IMG/VR virus record: IMGVR_UViG_2772190661_000001
Span: 1-64,000 of that record
Reading direction: 5' to 3' (one strand)
DNA length: 64,000 bases
DNA from: a virus
Lineage: Duplodnaviria > Caudoviricetes
Shown here piece by piece: positions 18,623 to 20,299 of the stretch (position 1 is its first letter; the number at the start of each line of letters is the position of its first letter). The notes under the pieces were generated by a model. It did no database searches and had not been told where the DNA came from. It was given only the letters and a program-made list of their open reading frames with translations. The position numbers were made by a program, and so were the translations under genes.

Positions 18623-19039
18623 CTATCGGTCCGCGGCCGCTGTCGGCCCGTAGACGATGCCCAGGCCGGGGACCTCCTGGGCGACGCGGGCGACGACTGC
18701 CCGATGCCAGGCCGCGGGCAGGTCTACGCCGGGATGCGCGGCCCGGTAGTCGGCGTCGGTGCGGTAGACGATGACGGCCGGGTCGGGCACGTCGGCCAGC
18801 GCTTTCACGATGCCGTCGACGAATTCGGCGGTGCGCTGTTCCAGGTCTTCAACGGCGAGCCGGACCCCGTCCGGGACCTCGTATTTGCCATGCTCCCAGT
18901 GGCGGACGGTCCGGCCGGACACGCCGAGGTGCGCGGCGAGGGCGTCGCCGGTGAGGCCGAGGTGTTCGCGGACGACGCGGAGTTCGGCGTCGGTCATGCG
19001 TTCGTCGTCGGGCATTCCGGGCGGGTCGGCGTAGTCCAC
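18623..19039 (-). CDS. Aca2/YdiL-like (DUF1870) XRE-HTH protein
   Basis: MTDAELRVVREHLGLT..ALA..LGVS.RTVRHWE.G..EVPDGV plus C-terminal VYRTDADY...WHRAVVARV. Confidence 0.75.
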   Translation of the reverse strand: MDYADPPGMPDDERMTDAELRVVREHLGLTGDALAAHLGVSGRTVRHWEHGKYEVPDGVRLAVEDLEQRTAEFVDGIVKALADVPDPAVIVYRTDADYRAAHPGVDLPAAWHRAVVARVAQEVPGLGIVYGPTAAADR

Positions 19040-19109: not shown

Positions 19110-19280
19110 TCAGCCGCGGTAGACGCCGTCGTCGTCGGTGTTGGTGAGCAGGTCGCGGAGGTGGGTCTCGGTGGTGTCGTCGAGCTCGGCGGTCTGCGGG
19201 GTGTCGTTGAGGTCGGCGAGGGCCTGGACCTCGTGGGGCTGCATGTTGTATTCGGCGGCGAGGCTGGCGATGGTGGTCAT
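19110..19280 (-). CDS. small acidic protein, anti-CRISPR/anti-defence candidate
   Basis: 56 aa, 12 D/E versus 2 R; GAAGGA RBS; directly upstream of the Aca2-like gene. Confidence 0.7.
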   Translation of the reverse strand: MTTIASLAAEYNMQPHEVQALADLNDTPQTAELDDTTETHLRDLLTNTDDDGVYRG

Positions 19281-19330: not shown

Positions 19331-19360
19331 AACGCTAGCTTCCTAAATTAGGAAGCGCAA
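19331..19360 (-). promoter_or_regulatory. housekeeping-type promoter with palindromic operator in the spacer
   Basis: TTGCGC-N17-TAGCGT; GCTTCCTAA-A-TTAGGAAGC perfect 9-bp inverted repeat at 19338-19356. Confidence 0.85.
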
Positions 19361-19446: not shown

Positions 19447-19863
19447 TCAGTACCCGCCGGCGTCAATCAGCCACACCTGCCCACCGTTGGCGTGAACGTT
19501 GCCCGGGTTGAAGTCGGCGGCGCCTTCGAGAATCGGGTACGGGCGGGCCACGGATCCGTCGTCGGGCAGGTACGGCATCGCAACCACGGTGGCCGTCTCC
19601 TCGTCGCCGTAGACGGTCAGCGTCACCTCGAACAGGCTGACCTCGGGCGCGTGTCGGTGACCATCGGCGCGGAGCCGGGTCAGGGTGGCGACCTCGCGCC
19701 GGTTGGCGCCGTCGACGCCGACCTTGTAGACGGTGGTGCCGTCGGCGGACAGGTAGACGGTGCGGTGGGCGCCCTGGCCGATCTGCTCGACGCCGTCCGG
19801 GAGGTCGAGGTCCAGGTAGTGGGCGGAGGCGATCACAGTCGCTTCGGCGCGGGTGCCGGGCAT
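19447..19863 (-). CDS. miniature protein-kinase-fold protein
   Basis: IGQGAHRTVY, VYK, NRRE, DFNPGNV, LIDAG; TAATG-coupled to upstream gene. Confidence 0.8.
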   Translation of the reverse strand: MPGTRAEATVIASAHYLDLDLPDGVEQIGQGAHRTVYLSADGTTVYKVGVDGANRREVATLTRLRADGHRHAPEVSLFEVTLTVYGDEETATVVAMPYLPDDGSVARPYPILEGAADFNPGNVHANGGQVWLIDAGGY

Positions 19864-20111
19864 TAGGCGGCGTCCTTGGGCGACTTGCGGCGGGCTCGGA
19901 CCGCCTCACGCGCTTCGGGTTTGAGTGCCTGGCGGACGGTCTCGCGGCTGTAGCCGGTGACGCGGATGATGTCGACCTGCCGCATGCCCTCGTCGGCGGC
20001 GCGCTGGATCTCGGCGTCGCGGGTGTCGCGGCGCTGCGTTTCGAGTCGCGCGATGTGCTCGCCGGCTTGGTCGTAGGCGGCTACGACGGCGCGGAGTTCG
20101 TCTTCTGTCAC
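19863..20111 (-). CDS. small HTH repressor
   Basis: RDAEIQRAADEGMRQVDIIRVTGYSRETVRQAL; leaderless (TTGCTA-N17-CAAGAT). Confidence 0.8.
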   Translation of the reverse strand: MTEDELRAVVAAYDQAGEHIARLETQRRDTRDAEIQRAADEGMRQVDIIRVTGYSRETVRQALKPEAREAVRARRKSPKDAA

Positions 20112-20135: not shown

Positions 20136-20195
20136 TGGCCTAGCAAGTCATGGCCTAACGTGGCTTGACATCCAATCCTCGCTTGGCCTAACGTT
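20136..20195 (+). promoter_or_regulatory. strong promoter overlapped by three TGGCCTARC direct repeats
   Basis: TTGACA (20165)-N18-TAACGT (20189); repeats at about 20136, 20151 and 20184. Confidence 0.8.
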
Positions 20196-20210
20196 GGTTG
20201 CAGCAAGGCA

Positions 20211-20299
20211 CCGGGGTTCCCGCCCCGGACAGCAAGAAGCCCCGGCAGGGTTCCCGCCCCGCCGGGGCACGCGAGACAGGGTTCCCGCCCCGCCTCGCG
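20211..20299 (+). ncRNA. triple stem-loop leader with identical GGG-UUCCCG-CCC apices
   Basis: GGGTTCCCGCCCCG at 20214, 20248 and 20279, each closing a different stem. Confidence 0.55.

Follow-up and report, generated by a model that had tools for sequence, protein, structure and literature searches.

A 138-residue kinase-like protein of actinophages that ends at the DFG position

The stretch of DNA analysed here (the window, 64,000 nucleotides; positions 1 to 64,000 of IMG/VR record IMGVR_UViG_2772190661_000001, a virus of the Caudoviricetes) is a mosaic of mobile-element genes, among them those for an AAA_25 replication-type ATPase, an HTH_17 excisionase-like protein, a phage zinc-finger protein, a KilAC antirepressor, a DnaB-N/DUF3987 protein and a tape-measure protein of 1112 aa. 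On its minus strand, at 19447..19863 with the stop codon included, lies an ATG-to-TGA ORF of 138 codons plus stop, the product of which was described in a first-pass annotation, made from the letters alone, as a miniature kinase and is referred to here as the mini-kinase. The GC content at its three codon positions (0.73/0.47/0.91) fits a real gene in DNA of 70 % GC, and an opposite-strand ORF at the same place fails the same codon-statistics filter. Besides the ORF itself and its codon statistics, the assignment of this coding sequence draws on its conservation, the structural model, the fold matches and a profile match to the Salmonella kinase SteC, all of which are set out below.

Directly upstream is a gene of 82 aa (19863..20111, minus strand; GC3 0.84) with a weak C-terminal HTH, which matches HTH_28 (20.5 bits, E 5e-4, below the cut-off of 25) and phrog_836 (1e-4). 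Its stop codon TAA overlaps the mini-kinase ATG (TAATG), so that the two genes probably form one operon, and a Shine–Dalgarno-like AAGGA lies 9 nt upstream. The overlap is in line with the translational coupling proposed in the first-pass annotation; the HTH assignment of the upstream gene is weak, and its part as a repressor is putative. Upstream of the 82-aa gene, in the divergent promoter region, there are two copies of TGGCCTAACGT and three copies of GGGTTCCCGCCCCG (20151-20200 and 20212-20294). On the other side, 115 nt separate the mini-kinase stop codon from the next annotated ORF, and this gap contains a 17 bp palindrome, CTTCCTAATTTAGGAAG (19339..19355), and the conserved leader of the next operon. 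The first gene of that Aca2-type operon is an acidic ORF of 56 aa (19110..19280, minus strand), the conserved leader of which is also found at the related locus L002; it also encodes an Aca2/YdiL-like HTH protein (18623..19039, minus strand; PF08965 at 26.5 bits against a cut-off of 23.8, HTH_31 at 31.9 bits). The mini-kinase thus does adjoin an acr/aca-like operon, as had been claimed, and the palindrome is assigned to this neighbouring operon and not to the mini-kinase.

A search of 5.8 billion proteins recovered 52 relatives of the mini-kinase, mostly from Micromonospora, Salinispora, Plantactinospora and Verrucosispora and from soil metagenomes. About 50 of these are 122-157 aa long, and the two exceptions, of ~229 aa, are extended at the N-terminus only. 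Conservation was read from a narrow alignment of 29 of the 52 relatives and from a wider one of relatives at about 30-40 % identity. Every one of the 29 aligned homologues terminates at WLIDAGG plus one or two residues. A HMMER search of 1.84 billion cluster representatives gave 37 matches, of which the true relatives, partial sequences aside, are 142-239 aa in length, and a dedicated search of proteins of 243-2000 aa yielded no longer relative. Four long representatives (P0072, P0077, P0083 and P0087) were rejected as chance matches to RCC1-like or other repeat proteins; such spurious matches arise via a GxxHTVFLxxDGTVYxVG-like motif. The first-pass annotation had recommended checking whether the homologues are short too, a truncated copy being expected if all of them were longer; instead, the relatives are all short, with one shared end point, and neither search brought up a longer one. 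Canonical kinases run ~120 residues past the DFG motif, which is what could suggest that the gene is the decayed fragment of a longer kinase gene. We consider this extremely improbable: the homologues share one end position, the 115-nt downstream gap is occupied by the palindrome and leader of the neighbouring operon, and the codon statistics are strong. The shared end and the ownership of the gap also led us to reject truncation, readthrough and a split gene.

Named families offer little to compare the protein with. Scans against Pfam, NCBIfam and PADLOC gave no informative match, phmmer against the PDB gave none at all, and a scan of PHROGs returned only phrog_28435 (3.9e-5, function unknown) and phrog_4301; a protein atlas places the mini-kinase among unnamed viral clusters of 121-186 aa.

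The kinase motifs on which the first-pass annotation was built are all present where it put them, namely, in the numbering of the 138-aa protein, IGQGAHRTVY (28-37), VYK (45-47), NRRE (54-57), DFNPGN (117-122) and LIDAG (132-136), the last followed by G137, Y138 and the stop codon, that is, two residues past LIDAG; to these we add MPYLP (96-100). In the glycine-rich loop, G29-Q-G31-A-H-R34 (19762..19779, minus strand), two of the three glycines of GxGxxG are present and the third is replaced by an arginine, R34, which like G31 is invariant in both alignments; the loop aligns to GSGSYG of SteC. The β3 lysine K47 of VYK (codon AAG, 19723..19725, minus strand) is likewise invariant in both, and the αC glutamate E57 of N54-R-R-E57 (19693..19695, minus strand) is invariant in the 29-sequence alignment. 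The catalytic loop, D117-F-N-P-G-N122 (19498..19515, minus strand), has D117, N119 and N122 conserved in at least 90 % of the 29 aligned homologues, and the metal-binding D134 of LIDAG, the DFG equivalent (19462..19464, minus strand), is invariant in both alignments and lies four residues from the C-terminus. The complete set of invariant positions in the narrow alignment is G31, R34, Y46, K47, N54, E57, M96-P100, D102, W131, L132, D134, A135 and G137; in the wider alignment G31, R34, Y46, K47, P73 and D134 are invariant and N122 is nearly so.

The AlphaFold2 model built with the alignment (pLDDT 95, pTM 0.88) has helices at residues 5-17 and 51-66 and strands at 26-30, 34-38, 44-49, 76-84 and 87-97, is without helix or strand over residues 98-119 and then forms a hairpin (123-126 and 129-132); K47 falls in the strand 44-49 and E57 in the helix 51-66. 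The order of parts is accordingly an N-terminal helix, a five-stranded N-lobe with αC, a short linker, the catalytic loop, a β-hairpin and the DAG motif. The model shows the N-lobe of a kinase and, after it, the catalytic loop and the β7-β8 hairpin, with αD, αE and everything past the DFG position predicted to be missing. The stretch from the hinge (M96-P100) to the catalytic loop is only 16 residues long and helix-free in the model, and the protein ends four residues past D134, αE and αF being absent, in agreement with the first-pass description of a very short segment before the catalytic loop and no activation segment or C-lobe.

Comparison of the model with known structures, a check that had been recommended along with the prediction itself, yielded a kinase-like fold throughout. 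Foldseek against the PDB matched APH(2''), PfPK5, CK2 and OspG, with APH(2'') enzymes at the top (E 1.7e-4). In a VIA-align search of 48,161 representative chains, the best 50 of 50 were kinase-like or related nucleotide-binding folds (Z 5.7-7.6, reaching 8.0 in a second-look list), including OspG (Z 7.1), NleH1, HopBF1, Bud32/PRPK, Rio1/2, YabT, PknB and PknE. In the second-look list, the alignment of residues 4-137 of the model to ALK2, PknB and CDK7 begins where the N-lobe begins and runs as far as the DFG motif (reaching residues 357, 159 and 158, respectively), and since the end of the model aligns to the DFG in these enzymes we take D134 to be the DFG aspartate. The structural Z-scores are moderate, and the case rests on the uniformity of the match list and the residue-level agreement. 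Near-invariance of the motifs in the 29 homologues, the SteC profile match and the 50/50 kinase-like structural matches put the motif pattern beyond chance, and the protein-kinase-like fold of the 138-aa protein is secure. The APH(2'') matches at the head of the Foldseek results could also speak for a kinase akin to the aminoglycoside phosphotransferases, with a small molecule such as an antibiotic or a nucleotide signal as its substrate. We think this improbable, as the APH match covers only the N-lobe and catalytic loops, the substrate-binding helical subdomain being absent, there is no Pfam APH match, and a protein kinase accounts for the one significant match at the level of sequence profiles.

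That kinase is SteC, an effector injected by Salmonella rather than a phage protein. The wider family profile matches SteC (chain 8jbi_D) with an E value of 4.2e-5 and 26.2 bits, profile positions 31-155 aligning to chain residues 33-173; it is the sole significant sequence-profile match in the PDB and spans the G-loop to the DGD motif. The narrow 29-sequence profile did not reach SteC and produced chance matches only in the PDB, the best being cofilin (E 0.31). D117, N122 and D134 are equivalent to SteC D344, N350 and D362, and the equivalent of K256 is present as well (PDB 8JBI). The two proteins differ in that SteC keeps the canonical GxGxxG where the mini-kinase has arginine at the third glycine, in that the second Asp of the SteC DGD motif is Gly in the mini-kinase, and in that SteC has N-terminal regulatory and targeting regions. 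The main difference is at the C-terminus: the mini-kinase ends at about SteC residue 366, whereas SteC goes on with αEF, S379 and αF. The SteC construct that was crystallized, 202-375, stops almost exactly at the mini-kinase end point. It formed a tight dimer in the crystal, one chain binding adenine and the other contributing N350, D362 and D364 (PMC11021425), and this raises the possibility that natural proteins of mini-kinase length are swapped dimers. SteC K256 and D344 are required for activity, which further needs the αEF/αF region, residues up to 429, and both SteC 202-375 and SteC 210-375 are inactive on substrate in vitro (PMC13395416). By analogy, then, the SteC truncation, the nearest experimental precedent, points against activity at mini-kinase length.

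Variation within the family bears on the same question. The nearest homologue (P0003, 74 % identity, from a JGI metagenome) has VGSKPSD in place of ADFNPGN, so that D117 and N122 are both lost; it is otherwise conserved, and either an error in the sequence or a naturally inactive variant could account for this. The spacing from D117 to N122 is one residue longer in many close homologues. In a distant subclade (P0060, P0065, P0068, P0069 and P0075), APQ stands where the catalytic Asp is expected, with Gln for Asp, and LIDG[VGE]D plus a tail of 10-25 residues replaces LIDAGG, while K47 and D134 are kept; judged by these residues, its members are candidate pseudokinases within the family. The mini-kinase itself might similarly be a nucleotide-binding pseudokinase or a partner-dependent ATPase, serving as a switch or subunit in the manner of Bud32, Rio or OspG, of which OspG needs a bound partner. 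Several observations are consistent with such a role: a SteC protein shortened to this end point has no activity (PMC13395416), the best fold matches include PRPK/Bud32, Rio and OspG, and P0003 and the distant subclade retain K47 and D134 without the catalytic Asp. A candidate for the partner is the small HTH-type protein encoded next door, since a gene of this kind adjoins the kinase at most loci, among them the window and the related loci L004, L005, L008, L009 and L010. These neighbours, however, show no demonstrable mutual homology, the 82-aa gene of the window having no significant similarity to the HTH-type neighbours elsewhere (E 0.14), and the retention of D117, N119 and N122 by at least 90 % of the clade suggests that a chemical step, and not nucleotide binding alone, is under selection. 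We therefore regard a role in nucleotide binding or ATP hydrolysis only as unlikely, though it is the alternative that we take most seriously.

Phage kinase domains that lack the whole C-terminal subdomain have been described before, by Iyer, Burroughs, Anand, de Souza and Aravind in 2017, as the Kinase-PolyVal domains of phage polyvalent proteins, a monophyletic group that corresponds to Pfam PF18762 (PMC5512222). The likeness is considerable: these too are phage or prophage kinase domains in which the C-terminal subdomain has been lost and the ATP-binding and phosphotransfer residues kept, and stand-alone versions exist. However, the window protein gave no match to PF18762 (a model of 160 positions with a Pfam gathering cut-off of 27 bits) at E values up to 1. 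Two members of the alignment and a distant relative, P0079, do match it, below the cut-off (best 19.9 bits versus 27), the match of P0079 running end to end (positions 27-154 of 160), and a bridge search from P0079 toward PF18762 members found only one relative. Three features mark the Kinase-PolyVal domains: a Glu on the N-terminal side of strand 2, a Gln in the final strand of the N-lobe and an insert that separates the catalytic His from the Asp. None of the three is found in the window protein, which has A32-H33 before R34 (no Glu), VVAMPYLP (no Gln) and AADFNPGN (no His and no insert); the GxGE glutamate is carried by distant relatives only. Moreover, the mini-kinase is ~20 residues shorter, has no helix before the catalytic loop (no αD/αE), is not part of a polyvalent protein and occurs in Actinomycetota, whereas Kinase-PolyVal is found in Bacteroidetes, Verrucomicrobia and Chlamydia; none of 401 Actinomycetota genomes sampled had a PF18762 match above cut-off. 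With the scores below cut-off and the three signature features absent, we have not filed the mini-kinase under PF18762. From their sequences the two appear to be the same kind of object, the mini-kinase being either a far-diverged branch or the outcome of a parallel reduction.

Another set of relatives is found in BK-cluster Streptomyces phages, the proteins of which belong to the same superfamily, stand alone, are about 159 aa long and end right after IDLGA. Alignment of profiles with hhalign firmly matched the mini-kinase clade to proteins of 159-162 aa, namely to Circinus gp242 (97.9 % probability, E 4.7e-13) and, over its full length, to P0079 (98.1 %, E 7.9e-14). The BK-cluster versions show an identity of only ~37 % and have, between hinge and catalytic loop, a Cys-rich insert and a helix that the window protein lacks; the insert (HCLDDCDCGERFNGTC) is possibly zinc-binding. 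Such genes occur in 38 BK-cluster phage records, with 1-3 matching places each (two or three in closer relatives); Circinus, for example, has two paralogous genes (L001:2995-3474 and MK620896.1 110246-110758). The carriers are large lytic phages with the copies located among early-type small genes. Most copies are annotated as hypothetical, the exceptions being Patelgo gp263 and Beuffert gp251 (serine/threonine kinase) and TunaTartare gp250 (kinase), and the top structural match in BFVD is a Wakanda protein that also bears the name serine/threonine kinase (TMq 0.71). A phage kinase without a C-lobe is thus already a predicted class, of which the Micromonosporaceae clade would, on the sequence comparisons, be a new and extreme variant.

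The mini-kinase also resembles T7 gp0.7, OspG, NleH and HopBF1, which are small kinases without a regulatory activation loop that are used in inter-genomic conflict, but all of these keep a reduced helical C-lobe that is wholly absent from the mini-kinase. OspG, NleH1 and HopBF1 match the model over 103-104 residues, as far as their DFG, with Z 6.2-7.1 and no sequence match. The T7 kinase is active, its kinase domain (residues 1-242) ending 27 residues past the DFG-like DPV, and is able to broadly disarm host defences (PMC13645617). The mini-kinase had no HMM match to the T7 kinase family (phrog_2828/PF27024) in PHROGs; a link to PF27024 in the protein atlas is a lead only.

The mini-kinase is present in a single copy in an ~11 Mb genome, which probably belongs to the Micromonosporaceae, the family in which the Plantactinospora locus L003/L014 also lies. 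The gene is sporadic, being found in 2 of 301 Micromonosporaceae genomes sampled, and it is present in IMG/VR phage contigs, including a complete phage of 104 kb. The contexts of the homologues were compared at 10 related loci, the wider alignment being too divergent for a locus scan. At L002 and L006 a small ORF is followed by an Aca2-like gene and then by the kinase, whereas in the window the kinase is upstream of that pair; the Aca2-like gene of the window (18623..19039) shares 68 % identity with its counterpart immediately before the kinase at these two loci. At five other loci, one of them the Plantactinospora locus L003/L014, a solo Cas7 gene of type I-B/I-C and of full length lies downstream of the kinase (PF05107, 255-265 bits; L003:4410-5312, L007:4393-5283, L004:5156-6004, L009:4765-5613 and L010:2487-3356); the Cas7 gene overlaps the kinase stop codon directly (two loci) or comes after one gene of ~110 aa; one carrier of this pair is a complete 104-kb phage with terminal repeats. 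No CRISPR-like repeats were found near the kinase-Cas7 cassettes, no other Cas7 in two tested host genomes, and no Cas7 in the genome of the window itself. A Cas7-centred scan found 49 viral contigs, only three of which, already known, had the kinase. The five cassettes being interrelated and 46 Cas7 loci being without a kinase, we regard the association as lineage-specific and as weak functional evidence. The ~110-aa gene goes with the cassette (L004:4824-5159, L009:4430-4768, L010:2137-2508 and L003:5768-6088). Its N-terminus (Y-x4-HEV-x-A) weakly resembles the start of the 56-aa ORF of the window (19110-19280) and its C-terminal HTH half weakly resembles the 82-aa gene at 19863-20111 (E about 1e-3 in a tiny database), and the window may therefore carry the two halves of the ~110-aa gene as separate genes. 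Regulators of 412-434 aa (HTH_3/HTH_31) adjoin the cassette at L002:4547-5818, L004:6073-7362, L007:5593-6897 and L009:929-2176, that of L004 also having weak TPR matches (XRE-TPR).

An HTH gene placed first and overlapping the next gene by stop and start codon is a layout typical of toxin-antitoxin operons, and the gene lies in a mobile element. It could accordingly encode a HipBA-like toxin or an abortive-infection toxin that phosphorylates an essential host protein, with the 82-aa gene as antitoxin or repressor. However, there was no match to HipA, Doc or zeta in Pfam or to any PADLOC model, the HTH assignment of the 82-aa gene is below threshold, partners and gene order differ between loci, and lytic phages carry two or more copies among their early-type small genes, all of which makes a toxin quite unlikely. 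The comparison of loci suggests that the mini-kinase is exchangeable cargo, carried by actinophages in their regulatory or early region beside anti-defence-type operons. A role in conflict would fit this setting, which does not separate counter-defence from exclusion encoded by a prophage; the carriage of mini-kinases by large lytic phages favours host takeover or counter-defence. The anti-defence use put forward in the first-pass annotation is thus plausible, from neighbourhood and analogy.

Taking as our observational basis the fold, the conservation of key residues, the shortness of all family members and the location in a mobile element, our current working hypothesis, to which we give a probability of roughly one half, is that the mini-kinase is a genuine phosphotransferase, a stand-alone PKL protein without a C-lobe, either promiscuous or aided by a partner or by dimerization, and carried as cargo for conflict. 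In this protein the 16-residue linker would stand in for αD and αE and the chain would end after D134-A-G; Mg-ATP would be bound in the usual cleft and phosphate transferred to protein hydroxyl groups. As there is no substrate-binding C-lobe, the protein is expected to be promiscuous or to rely on self-association or a partner protein. It would be an accessory cargo of actinophages and phage-derived elements, co-transcribed with the small HTH-like gene, and its most likely use would be the modification of host or rival-element proteins in phage-host conflict, comparable to that of the T7 kinase. Conservation of the ATP-anchoring pair, the catalytic loop and the Mg-binding Asp across a diverged family argues for activity, as does the activity of the T7 kinase, the domain of which ends so soon after its DFG-like motif; the loss of D117 and N122 in P0003, the subclade with Gln, the variable Asp-Asn spacing and the SteC truncation argue against it. 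More speculatively, and rather doubtfully, the protein may be half a kinase that is competent only in trans, as a domain-swapped dimer or with a partner encoded by a neighbouring gene, and with which actinophages phosphorylate components of host defence; the candidate partners would be the small HTH-type protein and, in sister phages, the coupled solo type I-C Cas7.

At 138 residues the mini-kinase is, to our knowledge, below the size of every kinase with demonstrated activity: OspG, NleH, HopBF1, Bud32 and the shortest active fragment of SteC all have about 160-220 residues. It is also without αE and αF, which are thought to be essential for the catalytic spine and substrate binding. An active mini-kinase would define the true minimal core of a kinase, an inactive one would show what a kinase N-lobe does alone, and in both cases nature provides a well-folding protein on which the disputed dimer mechanism of SteC can be tested. 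Should it prove to be half a kinase working in trans, no working protein kinase would be smaller, and it would exemplify a new, two-component way of building one. Both its activity and its role are directly testable. The mini-kinase would add an actinophage counterpart to the T7 kinase and, because its cargo slots adjoin anti-defence-type operons, may be the sign of a phage strategy, so far unstudied, in actinomycetes that produce antibiotics.
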